Shown here: piece after piece, positions 26,896-50,718 of the stretch
Layout: each line of letters begins with the position of its first letter
Position numbering within the stretch: the first letter of the stretch is position 1
Source: Escherichia phage ph0011
DNA length: 64,000 nucleotides
Sequence record: OP557969.1
Direction: 5' to 3' (one strand)
Made by a program: the position numbers and the translations under genes
Notes under the pieces: generated by a model
Databases searched by the model: none
The model's input: the letters and a program-made list of their open reading frames with translations, nothing else
What the model was told of the DNA's origin: nothing

Positions 26896-27324
26896 ATGAA
26901 TATCGAACAAATCATCCGTAATCATTCTTTCTTCGCCCCAGAGACTGGTCGTGTAATTGAGAATGTCAAAATCGAAGAACTTATGGTGAATGTTAAATAC
27001 AAAGAACCAAATGATGAGATTAGTAGCACTTTTTGTGCACTTCGTGCACCATTCCGCAATGAAAAAGCAAAAAAACCAGCATATGTTCTTGCAATTGCTT
27101 TAGGATGTGTTGTTAAACTTGCAGTTGATGAAAATATTATTAATATCAAAGTCGCCCCTACCAATGACGAAGAAAACATTGATTTGAACTTTGATGGTAA
27201 TCTCGACGAAGATGTATTTTTTCAACAGTCACTTGTTTATGACTTCCGTACCGTGACATATTCACATATTAACTTCGTCAATGAAATGGTTGATATTGTA
27301 GCCAAATATGAAGAATCTCTATAA
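26896..27324 (+). CDS. FQ-motif family paralog
   Basis: 142 aa; C-terminal DEDVFFQQSLVYDFRTVTY; followed by terminator. Confidence 0.55.
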   Translation: MNIEQIIRNHSFFAPETGRVIENVKIEELMVNVKYKEPNDEISSTFCALRAPFRNEKAKKPAYVLAIALGCVVKLAVDENIINIKVAPTNDEENIDLNFDGNLDEDVFFQQSLVYDFRTVTYSHINFVNEMVDIVAKYEESL

Positions 27325-27334
27325 TTAAATCATA

Positions 27335-27360
27335 AAAGCCTCCATGTTGGAGGCTTTTCT
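27335..27360 (+). terminator. rho-independent terminator
   Basis: AAGCCTCCATGTTGGAGGCTT + TTCT. Confidence 0.7.
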
Positions 27361-27381
27361 CACATAAGGAAATGAAGAAAT

Positions 27382-27933
27382 ATGATTGAACAAATTAATA
27401 TTCTCACACAACAAATTACCGACTTTCTCTCAGATAAAGAAGGTTTCAAAACTGAAGTGAAAATGCACGGCGTTAGTCTTGATGTAATTTCACCAGATGG
27501 AAATGTTACAAATTATGATATGTACGAATTGTTTCTTTACACTTTAGCAGTACGTAAACTAGGAAGTGACATTGAACTAAACATTAACACTGATAGTGAT
27601 GGAAATAAAATTTTTGCAATCAATACAAGTGCTAAGTATGATGTTAGTGCAGAAATTAAAAAAATTAACGATAGCTTTGTTGGTTTCACCCATGATTCAA
27701 TTCAAGGTGTTTTTGTAGGTAAACAAACTTCATCAAGTCAATGTCCATTTTGTATTATGACTTTATATAAAAATGGTGATTGGATGCGACAAGACTTGGT
27801 ATATGCTGAAATGTTGTATGCATTTACACATGGTCTAGAAATTGAATTAGATGATAGTGCTTTTTGCTTTAAGAAAATCCGAAAACTCACAAATGATATT
27901 CAAAAGCAACTTAAAGAATTAAATGATAAATAA
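27382..27933 (+). CDS. hypothetical protein
   Basis: 183-aa ORF. Confidence 0.5.
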   Translation: MIEQINILTQQITDFLSDKEGFKTEVKMHGVSLDVISPDGNVTNYDMYELFLYTLAVRKLGSDIELNINTDSDGNKIFAINTSAKYDVSAEIKKINDSFVGFTHDSIQGVFVGKQTSSSQCPFCIMTLYKNGDWMRQDLVYAEMLYAFTHGLEIELDDSAFCFKKIRKLTNDIQKQLKELNDK

Positions 27934-28044
27934 ATGTACCAGAAGTGGTTAACATATCATGTTATTTTCCTCCCTTACATAATAATGATGCGTTATTAGA
28001 TTTTCATTTTATTATTTCTTTTTTGTACAAAATCATATTAGTAC

Positions 28045-28070
28045 TGCCCCGTATATCGGGGCATTTTATT
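28045..28070 (+). terminator. rho-independent terminator
   Basis: TGCCCCGTATATCGGGGCA + TTTTATT. Confidence 0.65.
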
Positions 28071-28233
28071 ATCTAAAATATGGTGATTTTATGAAAAACA
28101 TTGGCTCTTCTATACAAAAAGACCTTTCATTTTACCTTAATAAATTCAGAAGTATAAATGGTAATAAATTTAATAGTATCTATCAGTTCACACATAAAGA
28201 ATATATTACTATTGATCCCTTTTCAAAAAACTG

Positions 28234-28482
28234 ATGTATGTTAATGATAATAATTATAGTGTTAAATTATCATTCGATATTGTGTTGGATAAATTAACAT
28301 TTACGGAATACACTACCAATAAAACTTCATTTTTACACAAGTATAATAGAAAGGTATATAATCATATTTCTAGTTATTTAAATGAAGAATATTACTTTCA
28401 ACAATCTACAATAGAAAAAGTATTATTCAGTACTGAAGAATTAAAAGAATTATATTATTGGTATGAGAAATTTACATCTTGA
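28234..28482 (+). CDS. FQ-motif family paralog (short, possibly truncated)
   Basis: 82 aa; NEEYYFQQSTIEKV motif; an upstream ~47-codon ORF in another frame may be its displaced N-terminus. Confidence 0.4.
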   Translation: MYVNDNNYSVKLSFDIVLDKLTFTEYTTNKTSFLHKYNRKVYNHISSYLNEEYYFQQSTIEKVLFSTEELKELYYWYEKFTS

Positions 28483-28537
28483 CATTATGGTGGTTTCATC
28501 TTACAATACAAGATAATGATGCGTTGAGGACAAATTC

Positions 28538-28948
28538 ATGAGTATAGATTTACACAATGAACTACAATATTTTTTTGATTTGGATATATCACGTTTGAAC
28601 AGACATGTCAATCATATATCCAGAACTATATGGTGGTCTGATGAGGCTGATGAACCAAGGATTCAGATTTGTGATAATTTGTCAGTTTTAAGATTGTATG
28701 TTCTTGATACCGAAATGAATATTATGATAACATACGTACCACCCACAAACAAACTTCTAATCAACACACTAAACCCAGATACAGTACTGAAAATTTTTGA
28801 TTTGGATACGATACAGTCAAGCGAAACACTATTCCAACGTTCATTGGTTGATGATCTAGGGGGTATTTCTTTTGACGATATATTAAAATTGAAGAAGATG
28901 TATAATGAATTATTAGAGATTAAAAATACCGTTCTAATGGGGATTTAA
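28538..28948 (+). CDS. FQ-motif family paralog
   Basis: 136 aa; SETLFQRSLVDDLGGISFDDI. Confidence 0.55.
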   Translation: MSIDLHNELQYFFDLDISRLNRHVNHISRTIWWSDEADEPRIQICDNLSVLRLYVLDTEMNIMITYVPPTNKLLINTLNPDTVLKIFDLDTIQSSETLFQRSLVDDLGGISFDDILKLKKMYNELLEIKNTVLMGI

Positions 28949-28949
28949 T

Positions 28950-29354
28950 ATGGTAAGTTTATTAGATATTGATAATACTAGTCTGGTTCTGGTGAAAAAA
29001 GGATTAATTCCAAATTCTAACAAGATTGATTATGCTGTTATTGAAACAAATATTGGGAATATCTGGTACGACTCTGAAAGAGACATTGTGTTTAGCTGTG
29101 TAGATAGTGATCGTTCTGAGTGCTGTAGGGTTGGGCATGACGGACAATTTATTTTCGAATTTCGTTTCTGGAAAGATTCCAGATTTCACCAGGAGCATGT
29201 TTCAATTACAAATGTAAATTGTAATGAAGAATCATTCTTCATGGAAAGTACTATTAATGATTTTGGCTCAGTTACTTTTGAGTACTATAAAAAAGTATAT
29301 AACTTGTACAGAGAAGTAATTCGAATCATAAGAACCTCTGAGGGTCAAGATTAA
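28950..29354 (+). CDS. FQ-motif family paralog
   Basis: 134 aa; NEESFFMESTINDFGSVTFEY. Confidence 0.55.
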   Translation: MVSLLDIDNTSLVLVKKGLIPNSNKIDYAVIETNIGNIWYDSERDIVFSCVDSDRSECCRVGHDGQFIFEFRFWKDSRFHQEHVSITNVNCNEESFFMESTINDFGSVTFEYYKKVYNLYREVIRIIRTSEGQD

Positions 29355-29355
29355 T

Positions 29356-29733
29356 ATGACTACTACCATATATAATATTTTAGGTAACTTGAATAAAAAC
29401 ATAGATAATGATTTTGTTATAGTTGAAAACACTAAAAATATAATTCATCTACCATTGGGTACACCAGATAGGTTAATTTTTAACATATACGCTAACACAC
29501 TGACATACATACACGATGGTATGGTTATCGTTGTGCTTGATATTAAAGAAAATACAATACGATATGCATATGACTTTAACGTTTATTGGTCAAGAACTCA
29601 TAGTATTGATATTGAGGAAGATGAACTTTTTCAATTATCGTTAATTGAGAAAAATGTAATAGGAGTTACCGAGATTGGTATTGTTAAAAAAGCTTTGGAA
29701 TATGCAAATAAAAAAATAAATGGCGAACTATGA
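29356..29733 (+). CDS. FQ-motif family paralog
   Basis: 125 aa; EEDELFQLSLIEKNVIGVTEI. Confidence 0.55.
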   Translation: MTTTIYNILGNLNKNIDNDFVIVENTKNIIHLPLGTPDRLIFNIYANTLTYIHDGMVIVVLDIKENTIRYAYDFNVYWSRTHSIDIEEDELFQLSLIEKNVIGVTEIGIVKKALEYANKKINGEL

Positions 29734-30194
29734 TGAACATTGAGGAAATAAAAAATCATTTTGAAATTGCATTGTCTTGTGATTTTGATAGTTGTTATGT
29801 TACTGAACCAGAAGATATAATTAGAATTTCCACATCGTTTTCAGAAGAATACAATATACTCATTGAGAAATCATATGACAGAACCGAACTCTCATTTTAC
29901 AATAAGGATTTACGAACAACATCATTTATATTATTATATAACACAACATCGGATATAATAGAGATTATAACAAGTAAAACAGGTAAAACAAGTAAAGATG
30001 TACATTATGAGACTATACCAAATGTAAGTTATTGTTCAACAGAAGAAGGATACTTCCAGGAATCACTTATTAAAAATTTATCAGTTAGCTATTCTGATTT
30101 AAGCATTATAGTCAATTATGTGGAAAAGTTAAATGATTTCGTTCTATCGATGTTTGATATCACTGAGCAAAAACCAAAGGAAATCAAATGTTAA
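29730..30194 (+). CDS. FQ-motif family paralog
   Basis: 154 aa; TEEGYFQESLIKNLSVSYSDL. Confidence 0.55.
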   Translation: MMNIEEIKNHFEIALSCDFDSCYVTEPEDIIRISTSFSEEYNILIEKSYDRTELSFYNKDLRTTSFILLYNTTSDIIEIITSKTGKTSKDVHYETIPNVSYCSTEEGYFQESLIKNLSVSYSDLSIIVNYVEKLNDFVLSMFDITEQKPKEIKC

Positions 30195-30643
30195 ATCCTG
30201 GACATTTTTTTCATTTACTGGACATTACACCTATACCCGATTTGATCAGCGAGACTAATCATTATCGTGATATTGGAATTGTATCAATGGAATATGATTC
30301 ACCTGACTTTAAATGTTACGTAACATACGATCAGGTGGCTTATGAGTCAGAGCCTGAGATTAAAAAACCATCATATATTTTTGTGTTCATATATAATGAT
30401 TATAGTGGTGATGTACTGAATGATGTTCATATTGACACATTTGAAATATGTGGTAATATTATATCAGATGATTCAGCATCCACATTTGATTTGGAATTAA
30501 ACAGTACTGAAGAGTCACTTTTTCAGTTGAGTACTATATGTGATACTATATTAACTCTAGATGACATTGAGAAATTTAAAGAACAGCTTGACGCAGTTCG
30601 TGAGATGTTCTATAATCATTATCCAGAAGTAGAGTTCAATTAA
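30188..30643 (+). CDS. FQ-motif family paralog
   Basis: 151 aa; TEESLFQLSTICDTILTLDDI. Confidence 0.55.
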   Translation: MLNPGHFFHLLDITPIPDLISETNHYRDIGIVSMEYDSPDFKCYVTYDQVAYESEPEIKKPSYIFVFIYNDYSGDVLNDVHIDTFEICGNIISDDSASTFDLELNSTEESLFQLSTICDTILTLDDIEKFKEQLDAVREMFYNHYPEVEFN

Positions 30644-30657
30644 CTAAAGGTAATAAA

Positions 30658-30918
30658 ATGACAAAAGTAGTTCGTAAACGCCACATGATGAATATGGATG
30701 AATTTCGTACATTTGACAAATATCGTACTATGTTTCGTATGCTGTCACAGGGTCGCCCAATCGTCATTGTAACAGAGAATTACATGTCACCTGAGATTAT
30801 GTTTGGTAATTACGAAAAGGTCTTCATGTTGTACGTGAAGCGTGGATTGCTTACAATCAAGACATTAGCTGAAGCAACTGATGATGATATGGATGGAGAT
30901 AATACCTTTACCATGTGA
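30658..30918 (+). CDS. hypothetical protein
   Basis: 86-aa ORF. Confidence 0.45.
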   Translation: MTKVVRKRHMMNMDEFRTFDKYRTMFRMLSQGRPIVIVTENYMSPEIMFGNYEKVFMLYVKRGLLTIKTLAEATDDDMDGDNTFTM

Positions 30919-30957
30919 GGAAATATATGTCTGAAAAACCAAAAGAACCTTTAGATC

Positions 30958-31248
30958 GTGATGATGATTTTTATGACGAACGATATGGAGATGATAATGA
31001 GTAAAAATAGTGCGGTGCTTAAAAAGATTTTAAAGGAAATTGATGGTGAATTTAATGTCACAGAAGAAGAATATCAGCATTGGAAGAAAGATTTCGAACA
31101 ACTAACCGAGTATGATAAAGTGTTCAATATGATTGGCGTAATTAGCCAGTACTTACTTGGTGGAGGACGTGCAAGTGCTTCAATTCTGGCATCTGCAATC
31201 ATCTGCACATCACGATGGTGTGATGAAAAAAGTTTGGAAGATTTCTAA
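30958..31248 (+). CDS. hypothetical protein
   Basis: 96-aa ORF; real start probably ~30997 (MSKNSAVL). Confidence 0.4.
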   Translation: MMMIFMTNDMEMIMSKNSAVLKKILKEIDGEFNVTEEEYQHWKKDFEQLTEYDKVFNMIGVISQYLLGGGRASASILASAIICTSRWCDEKSLEDF

Positions 31249-31254
31249 ATAAGA

Positions 31255-31263: not shown

Positions 31264-31300
31264 ATATCAGAGTACCTTAACAATATAAAAAGGATTTTAT

Positions 31301-33181
31301 ATGAAACCTATCCGAGTACTATCTCTTTTTAATGGAATGAGTGTAGGATACATGGCATTAAAAGATGCTGGTATCCCTGTTGAAAAATATTATTCATCCG
31401 AAATTGACAAATTTGCTATAGCTGAATCCCAAGCTAACTTCCCCGATATAATCCAATTGGGTGATGTAACTAAGTGGAGAGAATGGGATATTGAATGGGA
31501 CAAGATAGATCTACTGATGGGTGGTTTTCCATGCTTCCCAGCAGGAACTATGATAATGACAAATAAAGGTCATAAAGATATAAAAGATATAAAAATTGGT
31601 GATATGGTTCTTACACACACTGGACAGTACCAAAAAGTATTGAGTACTGGTGTTAAAAAGGCTCCCACTCGTATTATTACGGGTCAAGGTCACCTTCCAA
31701 TTGAATGTACCGATAATCATCCATTTTGGAGTAGGGAACGTCTAGCCAATAAATGGAATAATCAACGCCGAAGATATGATTCTGTGTTTTCTGAACCGCA
31801 ATGGGTAAATGCTATAGATCTTACTAAACAAAGTTATATTTGTAATGTTAAAAATATTACACATAATACTGTAAGTGATAAAGATGAAAAATATTGGTAT
31901 TTTGTTGGTCGTTTTATGGGTGATGGATGTGCTAGTGTATCTAATAACAAATACAGTATTACTATTGTAGATTCATTAGATAAAGTTGATGAATTGAAAA
32001 AATGCTTTGATGATTTTGGATACAAATACACATTAGCTATTAAAGATAATCATGTAAGATGTGATATATATAGCAAAAAGCTTTATGATGAATTAATATG
32101 TATTGGGCATAAATCACAAAACAAATGTTTACCACCTGAAATATTCAATGAAACTATCAATAACAAAGAAGCATTTATTAAAGGATACATGGATGCAGAT
32201 GGTTGTGAGGATAAACACAATAAAAAATACAAATTTACCACCACAAGTTATAAAATAGTTCTTGGTATGCAACAGTTAATCTTAGATACTTATCAAAGTC
32301 ATTGTACTATTAGCCAAACTGTTCCAAAAACAAAAAAATATATAAAAAATAAGTTGGTTAATCAGCTTCCGTATTGGAATGTTCATTTTAGCTATAATAA
32401 AATTAAAAGAGATGATGTAATATATGATGAAATTTATATATGGAATCGTGGTGTAAAAAGTAATGTACCAACCGGAGAATGGAAAACCGTTTACAATATT
32501 GAAGTTGCAGTAGATAACACATATACAGCGAACAATATTGTAGTTCATAACTGCCAAGCGTGGTCAGTTGCAGGTAAACAGGGTGGAATAAATGATCCTC
32601 GTGGTATGTTATTCCATACAATGGTTGATATTTACCAGCACATAAAAAGTCTCAATCCAGACTTGAAAGTACTGTTCGAGAATGTTAAAATGAAAGAAGA
32701 TTTCAAGCAATACATTAATAGTGTTCTTGAGATGACACCAGTACTGATAAATTCCCAGCATTATACGCCTCACTTCAGGCAGCGATATTACTGGTACAGT
32801 ACTGATAAACTTTTTATACCACCTGCATTATCCAATGCACCTAAACTTCAAGATATTATTGAAGATGGTTGGTACACTGACAGAACCGCTTCGTACTGTA
32901 TAGATGCTAACTATTTTAAGGGTGGTGATTGTAACCAGTACTTTAATAAATCAAGAAGACAAATTGTTTTCAAAGAACCTGATATCGATAGGGATTTCCT
33001 TCTTGAACATGGTAAGCGAAATGTGGACTATCGTCATTTAACAGTACAAGAGTGTTGCATGTTGCAAGGAATTGATGTAAACTACTTCAAAGTTAGTAGT
33101 TCAACACAAGCATACAAAATGCTTGGGAATGGATGGACTATGCCAGTTATATCACACTTACTACGAGATATATTCTTTTGA
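31301..33181 (+). CDS. DNA (cytosine-5)-methyltransferase interrupted in-frame by an intein
   Basis: 626-aa ORF; exteins carry C5-MTase motifs I (LFNGMSVG), IV (GGFP-C...QAWSVAG), VI (FENV), X (LGNGWTMPV); 340-aa insert between them. Confidence 0.8.
   Translation: MKPIRVLSLFNGMSVGYMALKDAGIPVEKYYSSEIDKFAIAESQANFPDIIQLGDVTKWREWDIEWDKIDLLMGGFPCFPAGTMIMTNKGHKDIKDIKIGDMVLTHTGQYQKVLSTGVKKAPTRIITGQGHLPIECTDNHPFWSRERLANKWNNQRRRYDSVFSEPQWVNAIDLTKQSYICNVKNITHNTVSDKDEKYWYFVGRFMGDGCASVSNNKYSITIVDSLDKVDELKKCFDDFGYKYTLAIKDNHVRCDIYSKKLYDELICIGHKSQNKCLPPEIFNETINNKEAFIKGYMDADGCEDKHNKKYKFTTTSYKIVLGMQQLILDTYQSHCTISQTVPKTKKYIKNKLVNQLPYWNVHFSYNKIKRDDVIYDEIYIWNRGVKSNVPTGEWKTVYNIEVAVDNTYTANNIVVHNCQAWSVAGKQGGINDPRGMLFHTMVDIYQHIKSLNPDLKVLFENVKMKEDFKQYINSVLEMTPVLINSQHYTPHFRQRYYWYSTDKLFIPPALSNAPKLQDIIEDGWYTDRTASYCIDANYFKGGDCNQYFNKSRRQIVFKEPDIDRDFLLEHGKRNVDYRHLTVQECCMLQGIDVNYFKVSSSTQAYKMLGNGWTMPVISHLLRDIFF
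31532..32551 (+). mobile_element. Intein with LAGLIDADG homing-endonuclease domain inside the C5-MTase gene
   Basis: Begins CFPAGTMIM (block A Cys1), two LAGLIDADG-type motifs (FVGRFMGDGC, FIKGYMDADGC), ends VVHN followed by extein Cys (PCQ catalytic Cys as +1 residue). Confidence 0.75.
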
Positions 33182-33183: not shown

Positions 33184-33663
33184 ATGAACAACTACCCCAC
33201 TTATACAGAACGTGCAATGGAATTTAAACGTCAGTTAGCCAAGGATGAATTAGAATTTAATTTGTATTATCCTAATATTGGTGATGAGGTATTGTATAGT
33301 TCTCATGCTAAGAATGGAACTTTACTTCATTCCGGTAAAGGTATTGTTGTGGATATGATTAGTACGTTTAAAGGAAAACTTAATGTAATGTACAAAGTAC
33401 AAGATTCAAGTACTAAGTGTATTCATGAAGTGATGCATAATATACCTACATACCCAAAAGATTTTGTTGAGCTAATATCTCGAAGGGAGAAACCTATGTT
33501 CTATTGTGGTTACGACAAATTAACCAAACAAATTATTCCTAATACTATGGGAAAATTTAAAAGTGATGTAAAATCTGAACTTAATAAGAAATTAGGTTCT
33601 TCATGGGAAACTGAAAACGAGTTTATCGAAATTCGTTTAATTGAAGTTACTATTCTTGATTAA
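33184..33663 (+). CDS. hypothetical protein
   Basis: Track ORF 33133-33663 overlaps MTase; likely start at ATG 33184 (MNNYPTYTERAME). Confidence 0.5.
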   Translation: MNNYPTYTERAMEFKRQLAKDELEFNLYYPNIGDEVLYSSHAKNGTLLHSGKGIVVDMISTFKGKLNVMYKVQDSSTKCIHEVMHNIPTYPKDFVELISRREKPMFYCGYDKLTKQIIPNTMGKFKSDVKSELNKKLGSSWETENEFIEIRLIEVTILD

Positions 33664-34222
33664 TTATAAATCCACGCATTGCGTGGATTTTTTCATAGGT
33701 GCATATATGACAGTTCCGTATGTTAAAATTATTAACAATATCCTTGATTTATGGGAAGATGTTATTACCGGTAAAAAGAATCCAATACCAGTACACGTAC
33801 TAACTGGAAGACTACAATTCAGAATGTCTAACAAAACTGAAACGTTTAATAATCATGATATTTGTATTACATTAAAAACACCTGTTAGTATTGTAATTAA
33901 AAAAAATAAAGATGATGAATTGTCATTATCTATTGGTCGTGATAAAATTATTTTAAGTAATTTGTCTGAAGAAGAATTCTTTCAAAGAAGTACTATCATC
34001 GACATGAAAGATTTCACATATGAATCATTAGTAGAACTCAATACACGTTTTGATGATATTCAGGAACGATTGCGACCAATACTCCGTAGAGAAGAAGAAG
34101 CCTGGATTGAAAGTATGAAGAAGATGCAAGAAATGTTAAAAGAAAATATTAACAATCTTGGTAAAACAACAATGGAAATTGGTAAAACTTTAAAACTCAA
34201 CTTTTCAAAGGATCGTAAATGA
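33641..34222 (+). CDS. FQ-motif family paralog
   Basis: C-terminal SEEEFFQRSTIIDMKDFTYESL; likely start ~33707 (MTVPYVKI) after terminator. Confidence 0.5.
   Translation: MKLLFLINYKSTHCVDFFIGAYMTVPYVKIINNILDLWEDVITGKKNPIPVHVLTGRLQFRMSNKTETFNNHDICITLKTPVSIVIKKNKDDELSLSIGRDKIILSNLSEEEFFQRSTIIDMKDFTYESLVELNTRFDDIQERLRPILRREEEAWIESMKKMQEMLKENINNLGKTTMEIGKTLKLNFSKDRK
33669..33695 (+). terminator. rho-independent terminator
   Basis: AATCCACGCATTGCGTGGATT + TTTTC. Confidence 0.7.
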
Positions 34223-34671
34223 AAATCGATGAACTGATTTATATTTTAGGTAACTTGCACAAAATATTGTTACATCGCAACGAGATGAATAAACTAGGGT
34301 ATAATATAACTAATTTAAATGAAACATCATTTAAATATAACTCAATCACTGGTGGAAATTATAATATTGTGTATTGTCATGAAACTGACCCTGACTGCTA
34401 TCAACTTACGTTATACTTTTATCCAACAAACCCTACCATTGTTCAAGACATATCATCAATATCACTTGACCCAGATGGTGAAATGAGTATAGAATATAGC
34501 TATGATTCTAAAAAAGAATGTTACGTTGAAGATATGAAAAATATGTTTAACGATGCATATGTGTTCCAGCTAAGTACTGTACATGATGTTGGAAGTACTA
34601 ATGGGCAATTTTGGAATACATGCTATTATCATATGATTGGAATTTGTAAATTACTAAAAGGCGATGATTAA
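34219..34671 (+). CDS. FQ-motif family paralog (divergent)
   Basis: 150 aa; DAYVFQLSTVHDVGSTNGQF. Confidence 0.5.
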   Translation: MKIDELIYILGNLHKILLHRNEMNKLGYNITNLNETSFKYNSITGGNYNIVYCHETDPDCYQLTLYFYPTNPTIVQDISSISLDPDGEMSIEYSYDSKKECYVEDMKNMFNDAYVFQLSTVHDVGSTNGQFWNTCYYHMIGICKLLKGDD

Positions 34672-35054
34672 TGAAATACAGCATTGAAGTACATTACACT
34701 ACTGGTGATACTGAAAATCAATATAACATAGTTAAGACCATTGATGTTCAATGGGATACTAAAGAGGAAGCAGTTGCTGCTTTACAGTGTCTAAAAGAGC
34801 ATTGGGTGTTTTATATGAAGCAAGATAATTGCCATACAAAAGAACGCGAAACTATCGTTAAAAATGCTAAACAAAAAGAGTGGTTTGACCCAATTTCACC
34901 AGAATATTCATTTTTGGTTAAAGTTGGTGGCGTGACAGTACCCTTACGAACACCGTGGAACGGCTACTTTGAAACTCTTCATAATGCACGAGTTGTCGCT
35001 GTTGACAATCCTGAACAAATCGATTTTGATTCATTGGACTGGAAAAAATTATGA
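34671..35054 (+). CDS. hypothetical protein
   Basis: 127-aa ORF. Confidence 0.5.
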   Translation: MKYSIEVHYTTGDTENQYNIVKTIDVQWDTKEEAVAALQCLKEHWVFYMKQDNCHTKERETIVKNAKQKEWFDPISPEYSFLVKVGGVTVPLRTPWNGYFETLHNARVVAVDNPEQIDFDSLDWKKL

Positions 35055-35494
35055 CAGTACTGCACCAATTGAAGAAGGTTAAGCATCCAGTTGTATATGA
35101 GGACTGGAAACGTCAGAAGCTGATGGGTGACTTTTATTACCCAAAATCTAAAGTTCTTGCGAATTCAAGATGTACATATATCAAACATAACGATAAAGAT
35201 ACAGTATTTGTTGAAATGGGGTTCAATCCATCAAATACAATGTTCAGTACTAACCAAACATTTTACAAATTTCATATCCAAAAAGATGTATTTTCTATTA
35301 AAATTATAAAACATTTAGTTGAAGATCTGGTATACAGTGAAGAAAGAGTTCCTTTATCATTAGTGGATATTCCTTATAATAATTTAGAGGAAATGTACTT
35401 CCAACAGTTGACAGTACAAGAAAACTTTGGTATGATAGGACTTCAAGAGTTAGAGATGATTAAGCAAATTCGTGATATCTACTTTAAGGGGTAA
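35051..35494 (+). CDS. FQ-motif family paralog
   Basis: 147 aa; NLEEMYFQQLTVQENFGMIGLQEL. Confidence 0.5.
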   Translation: MTVLHQLKKVKHPVVYEDWKRQKLMGDFYYPKSKVLANSRCTYIKHNDKDTVFVEMGFNPSNTMFSTNQTFYKFHIQKDVFSIKIIKHLVEDLVYSEERVPLSLVDIPYNNLEEMYFQQLTVQENFGMIGLQELEMIKQIRDIYFKG

Positions 35495-39770: not shown

Positions 39771-40163
39771 ATGACTGAATCAGAACTACATGAAATGATA
39801 GATTTCATTTATGAAATGATACAAGATAAAAATATCATTAATACAATTACTTCTGGTCCAAGACAAATTGGTAATCAAATGACATATTCTTTATCTTTAT
39901 GGATAAACCAGAACTACAAAGTTGATTGTTTGTATTTCCGTCCTGATATTGATGCTTATTATTTTGTCAATCATGATGCATTAATGAAACCACATAAGCG
40001 TCCAGTTGATGATAACTTTGTGACACACCCATTTTACCTTGCTGAATCAGAGGAAGATGAGTTTCAAAAGAACACAACGTTAAGCCCAGGTGAAATTTGC
40101 ATCCCTTACACACTAAAAGATAAAATGATTTACATCACAGAAGTTATGAAAACATGCTGGTAA
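39771..40163 (+). CDS. FQ-motif family paralog (divergent)
   Basis: 130 aa; SEEDEFQKNTTLSPGEI. Confidence 0.45.
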   Translation: MTESELHEMIDFIYEMIQDKNIINTITSGPRQIGNQMTYSLSLWINQNYKVDCLYFRPDIDAYYFVNHDALMKPHKRPVDDNFVTHPFYLAESEEDEFQKNTTLSPGEICIPYTLKDKMIYITEVMKTCW

Positions 40164-40210: not shown

Positions 40211-40780
40211 ATGAACTTTATTAAATTCAACACATCTGAGTCAGAAGCATACTTTAATACAAATAATAAATTTAATATTATTCTTAAAGACGGAACGGTT
40301 GTTATCGGAGTATCATTGCTTTCATTTGATGGCGAAAAACTCGAAACTGTTTATAAATTCACCAATCTTGATGGTGATTATTGGGATACATCAGATGTAT
40401 CTAAAATTTGCACACATTATGTATTTGAATCTATTGAAGTTGGTGATGGCTGGGCATTGACCTGCAATGGTAATAAAGTATTTTCTGGTAACATATTTGG
40501 GGTAATTTCCAGTAAAGAAATAGTAGACCATCATCTTCATGTTCTCAATAATAACGCCAACACTTATACACCTGATAATATCAAAATTCACGATATTGTA
40601 ACATATATTGATTATAATGGTTTCAGACATAAAGCAATTGTAACTGAAATTAAAAAACCAAAAAATTATTTCGATCACGGTTTGATTGAAGTATATATGG
40701 TAGGTGGCGAAAAACAATACTTTGAACATTTCACTTATACTGGTTGGGATAGATTCCTAACCGTTATTGAGGAATACTAA
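40211..40780 (+). CDS. hypothetical protein
   Basis: 189-aa ORF. Confidence 0.5.
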   Translation: MNFIKFNTSESEAYFNTNNKFNIILKDGTVVIGVSLLSFDGEKLETVYKFTNLDGDYWDTSDVSKICTHYVFESIEVGDGWALTCNGNKVFSGNIFGVISSKEIVDHHLHVLNNNANTYTPDNIKIHDIVTYIDYNGFRHKAIVTEIKKPKNYFDHGLIEVYMVGGEKQYFEHFTYTGWDRFLTVIEEY

Positions 40781-41270
40781 CATGCCGATTCGTGGTGTAC
40801 CAGACCCAATACGTGAAATTCTTAAGCACATTCGCATTGAAACACTAGAAGTTAACATGCGTCGTTATAATATATATTACTTTAAAACTTCCGAAATGAG
40901 TTCTGTACAGATTGTCATTGGTACATCTATTAAGATTACTCGTGTACTTGATGGCAGTACTGACTTTGTTGAATACAACGTACTTACTAATAAAGTAACA
41001 CATACATATAAATGGAGTGGATATAAAACTATTAAATATGAGTTTGACTTAGCTAGAACCGAAGAAGAACGATTCATGTTGAGTACTATAAATCCAGAAA
41101 ACTATCCTGACATTGATACATTTTTGCTAATTTTAAAATTGTATAATAAAGCAAATGAGAAAGCTAAAGAGTACAATAGAATCATGTATGAACGCAAAAA
41201 AGAACGTGTACAAAAAAGTTATGATCTGTATGATAACCCATACGTGAAATATAGTAAGGGAAAGAAATGA
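40767..41270 (+). CDS. FQ-motif family paralog (divergent)
   Basis: 167 aa; TEEERFMLSTINPENYPDIDTF; start may be ~40782. Confidence 0.45.
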   Translation: MRNTNMPIRGVPDPIREILKHIRIETLEVNMRRYNIYYFKTSEMSSVQIVIGTSIKITRVLDGSTDFVEYNVLTNKVTHTYKWSGYKTIKYEFDLARTEEERFMLSTINPENYPDIDTFLLILKLYNKANEKAKEYNRIMYERKKERVQKSYDLYDNPYVKYSKGKK

Positions 41271-41671
41271 ATAATGAAGTTCAAATTATCATTACTCCAC
41301 CTATACAAAGTCTGGATGTAACCATTAGCGATTTTTTGGAAAAATACTATGAATGGTTTAATGAAGATTCAGTCATTTATAACCATTCATTAACGGATGG
41401 TTTTGTTGAGCTTATTGAATTAAATTCCAAATCGCTATATTTCTGTGTCGAATACAATGATTATATGACCGATGAAGCATATCGCTTTCGTTGTACATTA
41501 TATCCTAACCATTTTTCTATTGGTTATAAAGACTATCAGTACTGTACCACTAACTATAGTGAAGAGGAAGAATTTCAGTACAATTTACTTTATCCAGATT
41601 TGGATTATACTATCGCAGTACTGTTGTCTAAAATCATGGATTTTTATAAAGGTAAATGTAATGCAACCTAA
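41267..41671 (+). CDS. FQ-motif family paralog
   Basis: 134 aa; SEEEEFQYNLLYPDLDYTIAVL. Confidence 0.5.
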   Translation: MNNEVQIIITPPIQSLDVTISDFLEKYYEWFNEDSVIYNHSLTDGFVELIELNSKSLYFCVEYNDYMTDEAYRFRCTLYPNHFSIGYKDYQYCTTNYSEEEEFQYNLLYPDLDYTIAVLLSKIMDFYKGKCNAT

Positions 41672-41846
41672 AACATTCGATGAGTGGTATCAAATACATT
41701 ACAATATAAATGCAGCAGATATATACTATTTTAAGCTTGAATTGTATATATCATTGCGTGACCCAGTTGAGTACTATAACAACATTATCAATTGTGATGA
41801 TTTTGGTACATATTTTAGCATTGCAGTTATGGATAAAATAAGATGA
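41661..41846 (+). CDS. small hypothetical protein (61 aa), possibly related to MTHEEW family
   Basis: Track ORF 41472-41846 trimmed to ATG 41661 (MQPKTFDEWYQIHY...). Confidence 0.35.
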   Translation: MQPKTFDEWYQIHYNINAADIYYFKLELYISLRDPVEYYNNIINCDDFGTYFSIAVMDKIR

Positions 41847-42025
41847 CACACAAAGAATGGTTAGATGAACTAAAGTTCAAACATGATCATTTTGGTCTTG
41901 GTATACGCCAGGGTCATTATGATGTGTTAAAAGATAAACAACTTTTCAAATCATTTGTACTTGATGAGGATAGTAATCACTGGTACATCTATGAGCTTGC
42001 GGTTAGAGACAAAAAAATTGACTAG
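41843..42025 (+). CDS. MTHEEW-family mini-protein
   Basis: 60 aa; MTHKEWLDELKFKHDHFGLGIRQGHYDVL...WYIYELAVRD. Confidence 0.5.
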   Translation: MTHKEWLDELKFKHDHFGLGIRQGHYDVLKDKQLFKSFVLDEDSNHWYIYELAVRDKKID

Positions 42026-42070: not shown

Positions 42071-42574
42071 ATGCTCATTACGCATGTACCGGAAAGTATT
42101 ACTGAGATTTTAAGTAAAATTAATGTTAATGAATTTGAACGAACAGTTCGAAAACAAGGTACTTATCACTATAAGCACAAAGATGGTGAACATCAAATAA
42201 GCTTAGATCAGAATTATCAAACTCTAACAATTAAAATGGTTACTCGCTGGAATTTTATTCGTAAAGATACTATTATCTGTGATTTTGGTAAAAGACTACT
42301 TAGAAAATGTTTCTCTGAAACAAATGGTATCTATCCAAACCCGAATAGAATTTTCACATATAAATACATCACAGATGAAGATGTACATTTTCAAGAGAGT
42401 TTGGTATGTGATAATAAGTACTTTCCCGCATTTTCAGATAATTTGAAGTTAAAAGAACTATATAACTATTTCTTAAACGACAATATTCAGTGGGATGAAG
42501 AATTAAAACAACGACAGATAGAACGTGAAAAGAAAAAAGTCTGGACTGGTTCACATTGGATGCAACGTAAATGA
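42071..42574 (+). CDS. FQ-motif family paralog
   Basis: 167 aa; DEDVHFQESLVCDNKYFPAFSD. Confidence 0.5.
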   Translation: MLITHVPESITEILSKINVNEFERTVRKQGTYHYKHKDGEHQISLDQNYQTLTIKMVTRWNFIRKDTIICDFGKRLLRKCFSETNGIYPNPNRIFTYKYITDEDVHFQESLVCDNKYFPAFSDNLKLKELYNYFLNDNIQWDEELKQRQIEREKKKVWTGSHWMQRK

Positions 42575-42741
42575 CACATGAAGAATGGATGTCTATTATG
42601 AAAGAACGATATGATCTGTTTGGGAATGGATTTCGTGATGGTCATTACGATATTTTACGAGACAAACAACAGTTCGATTTATATGTACTAGATGAGGATG
42701 GAAATCGATGGTTCATATATGAGCTTGCATTTAGGGAATAG
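42571..42741 (+). CDS. MTHEEW-family mini-protein
   Basis: Own reading: 56 aa MTHEEWMSIMKERYDLFGNGFRDGHYDIL...WFIYELAFRE; ATGA overlap with upstream gene. Confidence 0.45.
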   Translation: MTHEEWMSIMKERYDLFGNGFRDGHYDILRDKQQFDLYVLDEDGNRWFIYELAFRE

Positions 42742-43827: not shown

Positions 43828-43992
43828 ATGACGCATGAAGAATGGATGAATGACATTAATTTTAGATATGCAGGTATCGGTAACTGGAGAAAGTATCATT
43901 GGGAAATCATATCAGACCCAGCAGAATACGATAAACTTATGAATCATGAAGTGTATCCGTGGTTCTTTATTGAAATAATGGTACGATTATGA
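43828..43992 (+). CDS. MTHEEW-family mini-protein
   Basis: Own reading: 54 aa MTHEEWMNDINFRYAGIGNWRKYHWEII...; below track cutoff. Confidence 0.45.
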   Translation: MTHEEWMNDINFRYAGIGNWRKYHWEIISDPAEYDKLMNHEVYPWFFIEIMVRL

Positions 43993-44149
43993 CACATGAA
44001 GAATGGATGAATGACATTAATTTTAGATATTCGGGTATCGGTAAATGGCTAAAGTATCATTGGGAATTCATTTCAGAGCCACATCTGTATGATAAACTTA
44101 TCAACGATTCTGCATATAAAATGTACTTAATTGAACTACTGGTACGAAT

Positions 44150-44153
<4 letters not shown>
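43989..44153 (+). CDS. MTHEEW-family mini-protein
   Basis: Own reading: 54 aa MTHEEWMNDINFRYSGIGKWLKYHWEFI...; ATGA overlap. Confidence 0.45.
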
Positions 44154-44322
<169 letters not shown>

Positions 44323-44325: not shown

Positions 44326-45038
<713 letters not shown>

Positions 45039-45044: not shown

Positions 45045-45078
<34 letters not shown>

Positions 45079-45440: not shown

Positions 45441-45441
45441 T

Positions 45442-46080
<639 letters not shown>

Positions 46081-46153: not shown

Positions 46154-46678
<525 letters not shown>

Positions 46679-46700
46679 TTAAAAAATCAGTACTTTATTA

Positions 46701-46914
<214 letters not shown>

Positions 46915-46937
46915 TCATTGCACTCTTCTCTTGTAAT

Positions 46938-47085
<148 letters not shown>

Positions 47086-47106
47086 TTCACATGATATAGG
47101 GTACAC

Positions 47107-47364
<258 letters not shown>

Positions 47365-47380
47365 ATAAAAAGAACGAAAA

Positions 47381-47422
<42 letters not shown>

Positions 47423-47432
47423 GATTCCCGAT

Positions 47433-47559
<127 letters not shown>

Positions 47560-47578
47560 AGAGGTACTTCGAGTATGC

Positions 47579-47634
<56 letters not shown>

Positions 47635-47653
47635 AACTACTTTTTAATTGACG

Positions 47654-47704
<51 letters not shown>

Positions 47705-47721
47705 TACAACCGACAATGACT

Positions 47722-47788
<67 letters not shown>

Positions 47789-47963
47789 GAAGAAACTGCT
47801 AAACAGCTTGAAGAACTTTGTAGTGCTGCACCGATGCCGACTCTTGGCTTAATCAAGTTGATGCGTCGAAATAAGAAAAATTTAAAATAATACAGTAAGA
47901 TGGCCTCCCCTCCATATCATGAGAGTATAGAGACTTGTTGGTTATCTTACTTTTAAACAAACT

Positions 47964-48037
47964 GCCTCAATAGCAAAATTGGTAATGCACACGTTTTGTA
48001 AGCGTGAGATTTTTCCGTTCGAGTCGGAATTGGGGCA
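47964..48037 (+). tRNA. tRNA-Thr(TGT): tRNA-Thr (anticodon TGT)
   Basis: Acceptor GCCTCAA/TTGGGGC (one G-U), D-arm GCA..TGC, anticodon stem CACGT/GCGTG loop TTTGTAA, T-arm TTCCG-TTCGAGT-CGGAA. Confidence 0.65.
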
Positions 48038-48054
48038 CAAAATAAAGGCACACT

Positions 48055-48471
48055 ATGACATACAATATTGTTAAAATGGTGAACTATGTATTAAAAAACA
48101 ACTCATGGTCACTGCATGATGTACAATTAGAAGATATTGGTGAAGTTAGAGTATTTTGCTATGATGAAGAATTGAATGAAACCACTGATTTGAATAAATG
48201 TTTTAATATTTTTCTTGGTTATGAAATCAATGATCATTTTTATTCATTTGATGTGTATTTTGAAAAAGTTAAAATCAGAATTTCTAATGTAAATAGTGAT
48301 TATTTTGACACTAGAATTGAATTGAATTTTGACGATATTGATACTGAAGAAAAATTCTTTCAGTACTGCCTCGTAAACGACCTAAATGGCTTGACATTTG
48401 AGGACATTAGTGCTATACTTAAAGTTCAAAGATTGATTCCAGAAGAGGTTTCAAATCCGTTTAATGACTAG
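48055..48471 (+). CDS. FQ-motif family paralog
   Basis: 138 aa; TEEKFFQYCLVNDLNGLTFEDI. Confidence 0.55.
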   Translation: MTYNIVKMVNYVLKNNSWSLHDVQLEDIGEVRVFCYDEELNETTDLNKCFNIFLGYEINDHFYSFDVYFEKVKIRISNVNSDYFDTRIELNFDDIDTEEKFFQYCLVNDLNGLTFEDISAILKVQRLIPEEVSNPFND

Positions 48472-48829
48472 TTTAATAACTCGTATAATGCAAGATGTTC
48501 ATAGGAATCTTTATACTGGTAATTTTGATGATCCTAACATAAAAATATTATGTTATGATGGGTTCACACTAGTACACCCATTAGAATCTAATAATATATA
48601 CATAGCATATAATTCACCTAATCTTTTGTATCAATTTGATTTATATAGTACATTAGCGAAAGTAATCTTAGATGTTTCTAAGGAGCCATTTTTTATTGCA
48701 GTACGTGATTTTGAGTACACAGAAGAATCATTATTCCAGTACTCGATGATAAATGATATTGGTGACTTGACATTAGAAGAAATAAATGCAATAGTTGGTG
48801 TGTGTCGTTTGATTAATACCCACAATTAG
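48464..48829 (+). CDS. FQ-motif family paralog
   Basis: 121 aa; TEESLFQYSMINDIGDLTLEEI. Confidence 0.55.
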   Translation: MTSLITRIMQDVHRNLYTGNFDDPNIKILCYDGFTLVHPLESNNIYIAYNSPNLLYQFDLYSTLAKVILDVSKEPFFIAVRDFEYTEESLFQYSMINDIGDLTLEEINAIVGVCRLINTHN

Positions 48830-48838
48830 GAGATTCAT

Positions 48839-49030
48839 ATGTTCTGGAATTTATTATGCTTGTTTGGTCGTACATTAGTTCTTGCAATTATTCATACACC
48901 TGGCATTCGTAATTATGTTTCTTATGAATTTAAGAAAAATTATCACAACAATACTGAAGATCGTGCAACTAAGATGTGCAAAGACTTCAATGTAGATGTT
49001 CCACCATTCAAGAAGTACGAGGATGAATAA
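48839..49030 (+). CDS. hypothetical protein
   Basis: 63-aa ORF, hydrophobic N-terminus. Confidence 0.4.
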   Translation: MFWNLLCLFGRTLVLAIIHTPGIRNYVSYEFKKNYHNNTEDRATKMCKDFNVDVPPFKKYEDE

Positions 49031-49314
49031 TGGAATTTATTGTTGCACCTGATGAACTAAAAACATTCACGTTCCGAGACAATAACAATTATCCTTATAC
49101 AAATCATTCATTGAATTCATTACATGTTATTTCAATCATTGCATCTGAATACAGAGACAATCCATGTATTGATTTTAAAACCACTGATGGTGAATATACA
49201 TGGGTGATCCCAAAAGATAAATATAGTTATCAAGGGGCAGTAGAAATTCGCGACTCGATTCTACAGCAAATTGAAGATGGACATACTCATCCTAAACTAA
49301 ACATTCAGTACTGA
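49030..49314 (+). CDS. hypothetical protein
   Basis: 94-aa ORF. Confidence 0.45.
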   Translation: MEFIVAPDELKTFTFRDNNNYPYTNHSLNSLHVISIIASEYRDNPCIDFKTTDGEYTWVIPKDKYSYQGAVEIRDSILQQIEDGHTHPKLNIQY

Positions 49315-49398
49315 AATCGCTTATCAGAATAACTTCTAATAATAATTATTTTTCTCTACTATCTAACAGTATTTTACAAGAATTCTGTATTTTTGAAG

Positions 49399-49428
49399 TT
49401 GATTTTTGAACTTCTTATATGTTATACT
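49399..49428 (+). promoter_or_regulatory. possible promoter (TTGATT-18-TATACT)
   Basis: GTTGATTTTTGAACTTCTTATATGTTATACT; immediately followed by terminator-like hairpin. Confidence 0.35.
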
Positions 49429-49431
49429 TAC

Positions 49432-49462
49432 GGCTGATTCAATTATGAATCAGCCTTTTTTC
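49432..49462 (+). terminator. rho-independent terminator-like hairpin
   Basis: GGCTGATTCAATTATGAATCAGCC + TTTTTTC. Confidence 0.65.
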
Positions 49463-49464
49463 TT

Positions 49465-49896
49465 ATGAGGATTAATATAATGAATAGAGAAGTTATTAGT
49501 TTAATGGATGAGTATATAAACCAAACGCATCGTTTGATATTTTTAAATGAATTCGAGTCCAGAACAACGTATTATTCTGGAGAATATGAGATAACGACTG
49601 GTTCATTTCTGAACGGATATATGGAGTTTTTTGAACAAAGCGATAATGTTTTTATTTCCATATCTGAAAAACATGGTGATGGTTGTGTTATTGATGTATG
49701 GCCCAATAAAGTAGAGATTGATACTTCACACAAAATTGTAATTGATGTAGACGAATCATTATATGATTTAACTGAAGATATGTATATGCAGCTAAATTTT
49801 GTATATGACCTAACTAATATAAGTTATTGTAATTTAAGTAAATTATTTTATATTTGTGGCGTATTACATAATAATACACAACAAAATAAAGGATAA
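49465..49896 (+). CDS. FQ-motif family paralog (divergent)
   Basis: 143 aa; TEDMYMQLNFVYDLTNISYCNL; start may be ~49480. Confidence 0.45.
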   Translation: MRINIMNREVISLMDEYINQTHRLIFLNEFESRTTYYSGEYEITTGSFLNGYMEFFEQSDNVFISISEKHGDGCVIDVWPNKVEIDTSHKIVIDVDESLYDLTEDMYMQLNFVYDLTNISYCNLSKLFYICGVLHNNTQQNKG

Positions 49897-49904
49897 ACAT
49901 TTAA

Positions 49905-50309
49905 ATGTTGAAAATTCCACAACAGGCATTATCTATACTAATTGAAAATGGTGTAATATTTTCTGAAGGATGTAGTTCATTCTATACATGTGATGTGGAC
50001 CAGTACACATTTGAATACCGTTCATTTAAAAATACATTGAGTGTTTCATGTGAAGCTTCTGACAACATTGTACTTGTCGTTTCTTTCTATGGTGTACCAA
50101 AATTCTTCATTGATATATATTATGATTCTTTTAAGATACAAACATACGACCATTTTCTTGGTGAAGTGCTCTTGCAAATGCCAATTGAACATGTTACTAT
50201 AAATGAAGATATGTTCTTTCAGCTATCTACTGTATATGATATGTGTGGTTTGACATTTGACAACATTAATGGTATTTTTGAAATTGCCAGAACCCTACGA
50301 GGAAGATGA
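49905..50309 (+). CDS. FQ-motif family paralog
   Basis: 134 aa; NEDMFFQLSTVYDMCGLTFDNI. Confidence 0.55.
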   Translation: MLKIPQQALSILIENGVIFSEGCSSFYTCDVDQYTFEYRSFKNTLSVSCEASDNIVLVVSFYGVPKFFIDIYYDSFKIQTYDHFLGEVLLQMPIEHVTINEDMFFQLSTVYDMCGLTFDNINGIFEIARTLRGR

Positions 50310-50718
50310 TATGGTCAAAATTTTAAGTGACAATACAGTTGATATTGTTATTGATGTACTTGAAAACAGTAATACATTTGAGAAGAAACACAGTACTGTA
50401 TACTTCGGTAAAGATTGTTGGCTGAACTATACATCTGATAGTTCATTTATAATTCATGTTGAAAAGGGTGATATTGGATTAACGATACATGCTTCCTATA
50501 ATAAAACAATCACTGTTATTGCCAACAAGCCAAGTACTTCTGATTTCTGGGATATAATTGATGATTGTGATCATTTCATGTCAACATTCTATAAAACAGA
50601 AGAAGAACATTTCATGGATAGTACTGTTCGAGAATTACAAATTCCATTTAAATTAATGAAAGCGGTAAGGGATTTTATTTCAAAATACAAAAAAACAGGA
50701 GTATGTGATGCAATTTAA
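50257..50718 (+). CDS. FQ-motif family paralog (divergent)
   Basis: TEEEHFMDSTVRELQIPFKLM; track start overlaps upstream gene, likely start ~50311 (MVKILSDN). Confidence 0.45.
   Translation: MTTLMVFLKLPEPYEEDDMVKILSDNTVDIVIDVLENSNTFEKKHSTVYFGKDCWLNYTSDSSFIIHVEKGDIGLTIHASYNKTITVIANKPSTSDFWDIIDDCDHFMSTFYKTEEEHFMDSTVRELQIPFKLMKAVRDFISKYKKTGVCDAI

Follow-up and report, generated by a model that had tools for sequence, protein, structure and literature searches.

The stretch of DNA analysed here, 64,000 nucleotides from Escherichia phage ph0011 (OP557969.1; below, the window), encodes a family of small paralogous proteins that share a C-terminal motif, [ST]-E-E-x-[FY]-F-Q-x-S-[TL]-[IV]-x-D. Profile searches support 21 of the 22 open reading frames (ORFs) listed for this family as members, and the last one, at 39771, is a probable member. 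We propose that they form a single uncatalogued family with one predicted fold, and that its members, which share this scaffold, are accessory proteins made early inside the cell and directed at the host. Taken as a whole, this proposal has in our judgement about an even chance of being right; the part that concerns the family and its fold is far more secure than the part that concerns function. Although this particular family is new, large viruses are known to carry multigene families of accessory proteins, of which the present one is an unusually large case.

A shared motif defines the family

The initial annotation of the window had listed 22 ORFs and taken them for one motif-sharing family. 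All 22 are present on the + strand, at the coordinates given below. A strict form of the motif, [ED][EDTS]x[FYLMV][FYM][QM]x[SLCN][TLM][IVT], matched the window 13 times on the + strand and not once on the - strand. By chance, 0.055 matches were expected from 200 Markov-1 simulations of the window (maximum 2) and 0.018 when residues were shuffled within the called genes (maximum 1). Simulation and shuffling together rule out a chance or low-complexity motif, one of the outcomes that had been named in advance as able to undo the claim.

The same conclusion was reached with hidden Markov models (HMMs), whose construction from an alignment of the members had been suggested as a check. A seed HMM built only from the 13 strict-motif ORFs found six ORFs outside the seed (28538, 49465, 40767, 42071, 50257 and 34219; E 2e-7 to 3e-3) and nothing further in the window below E 0.02; when iterated, it settled at 18 window members. 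A broader alignment and HMM of 148 family sequences (the broad model) recovered 21 window ORFs at E<1e-3, with 28234, 34219, 41267 and 45442 absent from the model. The ORF at 39771 reached only a borderline E of 0.022.

The motif lies 22–44 residues from the C-terminus, and 74 residues from it in the product of 33641, which has a long tail. Its invariant Ser is encoded by AGT nine times and by TCN six times, its Phe by TTT or TTC (11 and 8 times) and its Gln by CAG or CAA (9 and 8 times); third-position identity within the motif averages 0.45. This mixture of synonymous codons, with both Ser codon classes in use, indicates that conservation acts at the peptide level and rules out a DNA repeat, as had been argued from the sequence at the outset. 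Across the 148 aligned sequences the motif Glu, Phe and Ser are at least 90% conserved, and mean column identity is only 8%. Paralogues are 15–25% identical to each other.

Size and distribution of the family

By its sequence, the window is Asteriusvirus-type jumbo coliphage DNA (the 121Q/PBECO4/phAPEC6 group). An 8-kb stretch of it is 87–89% identical to Asteriusvirus jumbo coliphages such as UE-S1, TH47, 121Q, PBECO4, phAPEC6, G17 and Sharanji, relatives whose genomes measure 348–386 kb.

The 22 ORFs counted initially are real, but the number underestimates the family, as it covers the 64-kb window only. We scanned with the family HMM the 1,871 ORFs of TH47, a complete relative genome without annotation, and obtained 49 matches at E<1e-3, or 57 at E<0.01, which all share one strand. 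Two arrays, at 53–81 kb and 141–181 kb (the latter is the counterpart of the window), and a small group at 335–351 kb hold these genes. The array at 53.5–81.4 kb (- strand), outside the window-homologous region, is a second, denser one of about 35 more divergent members, in which the string EE-x-[FY]-F-Q-x-S-[TL]-[IV] is plainly visible. It contains sub-blocks of near-alike neighbours, for example at 69.1–70.9 kb ('GPWDSEEYYFQ'), which suggests local tandem duplication. Since annotated relatives have 551–744 predicted genes, 49–57 members correspond to roughly 7–10% of the gene complement.

When 1.84 billion representative proteins were searched with a family profile, 182 clusters (50% identity) were found at E<=1e-3, all of them 60–222 amino acids long. 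The family proteins in the database are all named 'hypothetical'. The motif is kept in 130 of the 150 top clusters, with the consensus s-T-E-E-E-[YF]-F-Q-x-S-[TL]-[VI]-x-D-phi-x-x-phi-[TS]-[YF]-E-[DE]-phi. A metagenomic contig almost without DNA similarity to the window carries 12 family copies in 20.5 kb. Structure-based matches in BFVD came from Klebsiella phage RaK2, Pectobacterium phage CBB, Yersinia phage fHe-Yen9-03 and Erwinia phage pEa_SNUABM_47; those that carry a name are all called 'uncharacterized'. Taken together, these distribution data indicate that the expansion is old and common to the Rak2-like jumbo phage clade. Diverged tandem paralogues on one strand, conserved across relatives, as expected of a multigene family, are found in the window (21), in TH47 (49–57) and on the metagenomic contig (12).

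In annotated relatives, each gene that corresponds to a family locus is named 'hypothetical protein'. A database protein 100% identical to the 48055 product bears the name 'hypothetical' as well and lies on a contig labelled Escherichia coli; this contig is a phage genome that was included in a bacterial assembly. In the phAPEC6 record (MK817115), two clear family genes, at 50593-51009 and 63756-64199, have no annotation; one is situated between gp083c and gp084c and the other where gp118c is missing. One of the 148 sequences of the broad alignment gave a Pfam RecQ-1-like helix-turn-helix match (E 3.7e-12), which is absent among the ten longest proteins; this sequence may represent a fusion protein, or may not belong to the family.

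The initial annotation had been unable to place the proteins in a named family, and our searches bear it out. Pfam gave no match for the window members searched and no domain common to the 148 sequences of the broad alignment, NCBIfam gave no match to the family, and among PDB sequences only a chance match was found (a 'TEENYFQK' string, E 0.54). In PHROGs, members are spread over at least 15 groups of unknown function, including phrog_17453, 24510, 23322, 30841, 34619, 28118, 23719 and 38573, which match one another only via the last ~40 residues. Each member searched matches its own group over the full length (E 1e-39 to 1e-107). PHROGs thus holds the members but not the family.

In the literature, the RaK2 genome paper reported that nearly 10% of the gene products are paralogues of one another and left the families undefined (PMC3622015), and 22 ORFs with paralogues were counted in CBB (PMC5259590). 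The jumbo-phage survey of Iyer et al. 2021 makes no mention of an EExFFQxS family (PMC7824862), and the Asteriusvirus genome papers on Sharanji, fEgEco12 and phAPEC6 do not describe it; among 28 listed Asteriusvirus titles, none hints at it.

Predicted fold and the place of the motif in it

AlphaFold models were obtained for two members with about 17% identity. The model of the 48055 product (138 amino acids; predicted local distance difference test score, pLDDT, 80.7; predicted template modelling score, pTM, 0.72) has a helix at residues 4-15, six antiparallel strands and helices at 98-107 and 115-125. The model of the 40767 product, read from position 40782 (162 amino acids; pLDDT 90.3; pTM 0.80), has a helix at 10-14, seven strands and helices at 94-103 and 111-150, the last one long. 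The layout is the same in both: a predicted compact alpha/beta domain with an N-terminal helix, a 6–7-stranded antiparallel beta-meander and two C-terminal helices behind the sheet.

In both models the motif is the first C-terminal helix, with a pLDDT of ~90–95 for the block, and the helix that follows it begins with a second stretch of conserved residues. The conserved Ser/Thr that precedes the motif helix is a plausible N-cap in these models. The initial annotation had suggested a docking, targeting or processing module. A free linear docking or processing tag does not agree with an ordered helix within a compact domain. In these models the motif is primarily a structural element; it could still be a shared interaction surface.

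Such a surface is the core of the alternative that survives best, which we consider possible, at a chance of about one in four. Here the motif would be a shared docking helix, either for one common partner (a host or phage chaperone, a protease, RNA polymerase or a replisome component) or for homo- or hetero-oligomers, and the variable half would bring cargo or targets, so that the proteins would act as adaptors. The strong conservation of Glu, Phe and Ser among sequences that otherwise share so little speaks for it. The conserved E, Q, S and D at i, i+4, i+7 and i+11 would, on the predicted helix, line one face, and in the 1P32 structure of the acidic p32/MAM33 proteins the terminal helices contribute to trimer contacts. 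However, the helix is predicted to be part of the folded core, and its conservation may just reflect folding. A docking helix is compatible with a role as host-directed accessory proteins.

The family is acidic, with a median isoelectric point (pI) of 4.6 and a pI below 5 in 76% of members versus 30% of other ORFs. Four window members are basic (pI 7.8–9.4), three of them with Lys/Arg-rich C-terminal tails. No signal peptide or membrane helix was seen at the N-termini of the window sequences, which were inspected by eye without a predictor.

Evolution of the copies

For 20 of 21 window members, syntenic reciprocal-best orthologues were found in TH47 and phAPEC6. The median ratio of nonsynonymous to synonymous substitution rates (dN/dS) is 0.19 against TH47 and 0.25 against both phAPEC6 and UE-S1; the highest single value is 0.74. 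These values indicate purifying selection, with no gene-wide positive selection.

The family had initially been called diversifying. This is right insofar as orthologues diverge faster than their neighbours, mainly in the N-terminal region, but the dN/dS ratios are those of purifying selection. Amino acid identity to phAPEC6 is 0.74 for the family versus 0.88 for neighbouring small genes (p 8.5e-5), and dN/dS against the same phage is 0.25 versus 0.16 (p 0.017). Within orthologue pairs, the N-terminal region is 0.68 identical versus 0.82 for the 31-residue C-terminal module, the latter being the more conserved in 16 of 18 pairs (p 5e-5). The fastest-diverging copy is 49465, with 40% identity to its phAPEC6 orthologue. 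Orthologues of 49905 are 91–93% identical in one sub-clade and ~56% identical in the 121Q/PBECO4 clade.

For 42071, neither a positional orthologue nor a reciprocal best hit was found in TH47, phAPEC6 or UE-S1. It does not form a recent duplicate pair with 40767, as the two share 37% identity over 35 residues only (BLASTP); gain or loss by recombination is suggested rather than recent duplication. For the family as a whole, recent amplification is ruled out by the 15–25% identity of paralogues together with the syntenic orthologues.

These data bear on a further alternative, that the genes are dispensable filler: ORFs amplified selfishly or neutrally in hyperplastic regions, with no specific host-directed function. 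The regions are indeed rich in homing endonucleases, tRNAs and small ORFs and hold an intein, one copy is truncated (28234) and one is a presence/absence variant (42071). Papers on related genomes also report that blocks of hypothetical genes differ most among isolates (PMC13070987). Against this, the syntenic orthologues of 20 of the 21 copies are found in genomes at a synonymous divergence (dS) of ~0.3–0.7, dN/dS is similar to that of neighbouring genes, arrays are kept in a relative almost without DNA similarity, and the paralogues are ancient rather than recent amplifications. We therefore hold this alternative to be improbable.

Promoters and virion proteome

Sites resembling sigma70 promoters (at least 11 of 12 consensus matches) are concentrated on the coding strand of the family: 32 of them lie on the + strand of the window but only 1 on the - strand, against an expectation of 3.8 for either strand. 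Some lie 30–50 bp upstream of arrays, e.g. at 28479, 44327 and 48391. A 28–29-bp promoter cassette, TTGACTAAATAGTTCAGTACTG(A)TATAAT, is present on the + strand in four near-identical copies, at 44327-44354, 44739-44766, 45050-45078 and 46701-46729. To judge from the sequence, the + strand pattern of sites is that of early genes driven by the host polymerase.

Packaging of the proteins in the virion had been considered initially, and this option is now disfavoured. Mass spectrometry of purified phAPEC6 virions identified 62 proteins (PMC7247149 Table 1). The phAPEC6 orthologues of window members are gp054c, gp083c/084c, gp087c/088c, gp092c/093c, gp103c, gp120c/121c, gp127c-132c and gp134c, and two further ones lie at unannotated ORFs. 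None of the annotated orthologues is among the 62 virion proteins of that table.

The virion data, together with the predicted helix, also lead us to reject a role of the motif as a signal for proteolytic processing or for targeting, in which the proteins would be precursors, or cargo that is cleaved after delivery to the capsid; such a role is very unlikely. The resemblance of E-E-x-[FY]-F-Q-x-S to sites of tobacco etch virus (TEV)/3C type (E-x-x-Y-x-Q|[GS], ENLYFQ|S), of [ST]-x-E to prohead-protease sites of jumbo phages and of the sole PDB sequence match to the same kind of string, as well as the presence of a prohead protease gene (phAPEC6 gp227c), is outweighed: the motif is predicted as an ordered helix (block pLDDT ~90 or more) and no exposed linker, the residue after Gln varies (Q, R, E, L, T, Y, M, D) with no G/S rule and the conserved Ser one position later, conservation runs ~25 residues further as the second helix, no mapped orthologue is in the virion proteome, and the annotation of the UE-S1 and phAPEC6 stretches examined contains no 3C-like protease.

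Members and their genomic setting

The members form tandem arrays interleaved with tRNAs, homing endonucleases and repeated promoters, as first described: we found 7 tRNAs, an HNH/NUMOD4 endonuclease and an intein-bearing methyltransferase encoded among the family genes, besides the promoters. The GC content of the window is 33%. In annotated relatives, replication genes (gyrase B, topoisomerase II, clamp loader) precede the family-bearing region. All members below are on the + strand, and E-values are those of the broad model unless stated otherwise. For 33641, 40767 and 50257, translation probably begins downstream of the longest-ORF start, at the ATGs at 33707, 40782 and 50311, respectively.

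The first member, 26896..27324 (142 amino acids; EDVFFQQSLV; E 1.4e-16), belongs to phrog_23322 of unknown function and has syntenic orthologues in TH47, phAPEC6 (gp134c) and UE-S1. It is followed by an N-terminally truncated member at 28234..28482 (82 amino acids; EEYYFQQSTI; E 2.2e-9, not in the model). The orthologues of the latter in TH47, phAPEC6 and UE-S1 have 131 amino acids, and the upstream frame here (region 28087-28482) contains many stop codons. Probably this copy is undergoing decay or has been shortened.

The array at 28.5–30.6 kb starts with 28538..28948 (136 amino acids; SETLFQRSLV; E 1.4e-17; seed HMM E 2e-7, not in the seed), which has a sigma70-like promoter at 28479-28507. 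It continues with 28950..29354 (134 amino acids; EESFFMESTI; E 7.8e-18; phrog_24510), 29356..29733 (125 amino acids; EDELFQLSLI; E 1.5e-11), 29730..30194 (154 amino acids; EEGYFQESLI; E 1.7e-14; phrog_30841) and 30188..30643 (151 amino acids; EESLFQLSTI; E 4.7e-17). The last of these is the most acidic copy, with a pI of 4.05 and a net charge of -24.

At 31301-33181 (+), a C5-cytosine DNA methyltransferase gene is split by an intein, whose Hint and LAGLIDADG domains lie inside PF00145, between ...GGFPC and CQAWS.... The same 1881-nt gene is present in UE-S1. In phAPEC6 the homologous gene, gp123c, measures only 861 nt and therefore lacks the intein.

Three members follow: 33641..34222 (EEEFFQRSTI; E 5.1e-14), with a long charged C-terminal tail and a match to phrog_38573 that starts at residue 23; the divergent 34219..34671 (150 amino acids; DAYVFQLSTV; E 7.3e-10, not in the model; seed HMM E 3e-3); and 35051..35494 (147 amino acids; EEMYFQQLTV; E 1.7e-14; phrog_23719).

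The next array opens with the probable member at 39771..40163 (130 amino acids; SEEDEFQKNT; E 0.022), which is very divergent and insecure, its alignment covering the motif but not the second helix. It is followed by 40767..41270 (EEERFMLSTI; E 5.3e-21), the subject of the second structure model, with a basic C-terminal helix and a pI of 9.4, by the divergent 41267..41671 (134 amino acids; EEEEFQYNLL; E 1.4e-4, not in the model), and by 42071..42574 (167 amino acids, with a basic tail; EDVHFQESLV; E 1.7e-18; seed HMM E 1.3e-4, not in the seed).

A second paralogous family, of five tiny proteins (54–60 amino acids) that all start with MTH[EK]EW[ML], is interleaved here with the main family and the tRNAs. 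Its genes are at 41843-42025, 42571-42741, 43828-43992, 43989-44153 and 44150-44314 (+). Pfam gave no match for the two of the five proteins that were searched.

Directly downstream of the promoter cassette at 44327-44354 lies 44386..44742 (118 amino acids; EEEYFQTSTV; E 6.2e-13). The divergent 45442..45816 (124 amino acids; EADEFQKRTV; E 5.4e-6, not in the model) comes next. At 46740-46831 (+), ARAGORN predicted a tRNA-Ser with the anticodon ACT; an A at the wobble position is unusual in bacteria and phages. This tRNA adjoins tRNA-Ser(GCT) and tRNA-Ser(TGA). The most frequent codon of the motif's invariant Ser is AGT, and tRNA-Ser(ACT) is encoded in the same window.

The last array consists of 48055..48471 (138 amino acids; EEKFFQYCLV; E 3.8e-18), the subject of the first structure model, 48464..48829 (121 amino acids; EESLFQYSMI; E 2.1e-14; phrog_17453), 49465..49896 (143 amino acids; EDMYMQLNFV; E 1.5e-13; seed HMM E 4.9e-6, not in the seed), 49905..50309 (134 amino acids; EDMFFQLSTV; E 3.3e-14) and 50257..50718 (EEEHFMDSTV; E 1e-13; seed HMM E 5.8e-4, not in the seed). 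The remaining listed member lies outside the range of 26896–50718 stated at the outset, at 63021..63539 (172 amino acids; EESVFQQSLI; E 1.9e-12; phrog_28118); its phAPEC6 orthologue is gp054c.

A 122-residue ORF at 61820-62188 (+) was repeatedly the top match when only the N-terminal half of the profile, which covers the beta-sheet, was used for the search, and it ends before the conserved helices. Its product may be a member without the C-terminal module or a compositional match.

Discussion

In the reading that we favour, the family consists of small (~105–195 amino acids), mostly acidic, soluble proteins. In the lineage of the Rak2-like/Asteriusvirus jumbo phages it has expanded to a very large size. 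The motif would form the first C-terminal helix and the stretch phi-[TS]-[FY]-E-[DE]-phi would start the second. This helix pair would be the invariant core of the fold, possibly also a surface for oligomerisation or for a common partner, and the beta-sheet half would be free to vary. Made early inside the infected cell, the proteins may together constitute a set of host-directed binders that serve takeover of the host and/or anti-defence; with its variable sheet surface, each paralogue would engage a different host or competitor target. The acidic majority may mimic nucleic acid or engage basic partners, as acidic proteins of the p32/MAM33 type and phage DNA mimics do.

Several points weigh against this reading. 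As for the fold, the N-terminal regions are highly diverged, as stated at the outset, and could barely be related in a leave-one-subfamily-out homology test (1 of 17 at E<1e-3, though for 9 of 17 the rank was 3 or better among 326 sequences). Because sequence homology is weak there, the shared beta-meander and fold rest on prediction, and the two AlphaFold models, both made from multiple sequence alignments of the same family, are not fully independent. The polar Glu, Gln, Ser and Asp are near-invariant in the motif helix, which suggests a role beyond structure. As for timing and location, a phage RpoD-like sigma factor (phAPEC6 gp066c) could read sigma70-like promoters, so early timing is unproven; the virion protein list may miss low-copy small proteins, and the comparison with it covers the orthologues of window members rather than the second array. 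Charge mimicry does not apply to all members, since four in the window are basic. Finally, no annotated homologue assigns a function to any member, and the host-directed or anti-defence role comes from context and analogy only.

A possible structural parallel is p32/gC1qBP/Mam33 (PF02330; PDB 1P32, 7TE3, 3QV0, 1YQF, 3JV1). These are likewise small proteins, their acidity is matched by the strongly acidic majority of the phage family, and their alpha-beta7-alpha-alpha order of elements is the one predicted by the AlphaFold models. The MAM33 profile (PF02330) gave no match, even at E<=1, among 20 window members and the 148 sequences of the broad alignment. Unlike the ~50 copies of the phage family, p32/MAM33 proteins are eukaryotic, mitochondrial and single-copy, and to our knowledge an EExFFQxS helix motif is not a feature of MAM33.

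A bolder version of the host-directed reading would make the family a p32/MAM33-like acidic oligomeric scaffold, invented by phages or captured anciently, with ~50–60 paralogues per genome, each of which would neutralise its own target among the defence or nucleic-acid-binding proteins of the host. The EExFFQxS helix would serve for assembly into homo- or hetero-oligomers or for docking to one shared host hub. We consider this doubtful, a chance of perhaps one in eight. If true, it would be the largest single-fold set of counter-defence or host-takeover proteins known in any phage.

Other viral systems share part of this picture. T7 Ocr, ArdA and T4 Arn are small, very acidic, early, non-virion proteins that neutralise nucleic-acid-binding defence proteins of the host. 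They differ from the present family in that they are encoded by single-copy genes and have no sequence or fold match to it, and several members of the phage family are basic. The T4 internal proteins IPI-III are also diversified small accessory proteins with one short conserved segment. In their case, however, this segment is an N-terminal, cleaved leader of ~10 residues and the proteins are packaged, whereas here it is a predicted C-terminal folded helix pair and the products were not detected in phAPEC6 virions.

On the level of genome organisation, parallels are the MGF360/505/110 families of African swine fever virus (ASFV) and the Bcl-2-like and ankyrin families of poxviruses, which likewise consist of tandem diverged paralogues on one scaffold with presence/absence variation. 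Those families have roles in host range or immune evasion. Their folds and hosts are unrelated to those of the phage family, for which a role in immune evasion is hypothetical. Among phages, a parallel is the zinc ribbon of Bacillus phage G, with ~35 copies an expansion termed 'unprecedented' in 2021 (PMC7824862): one small domain in dozens of copies in a single jumbo-phage genome, discussed in a context of biological conflict. The present family belongs to a different phage group, has a predicted alpha/beta fold without zinc ligands and, with 49–57 copies in TH47, exceeds that number.

About one gene in ten of the therapeutically studied jumbo coliphages (121Q, PBECO4, phAPEC6, G17, Sharanji, UE-S1 and others) falls into one family. 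Once defined, this family unites at least 15 PHROGs, together with hundreds of entries named 'hypothetical protein', in one domain and provides annotators with a profile and a diagnostic motif. A conserved helical core, a fast-evolving beta-sheet, early-type promoters and absence from the virion point to a panel of host-directed effectors, and such panels are the usual source of new anti-defence proteins and host-takeover mechanisms. Phages of this group grow on E. coli K-12, so that experiments are feasible and the function of the family is directly testable.

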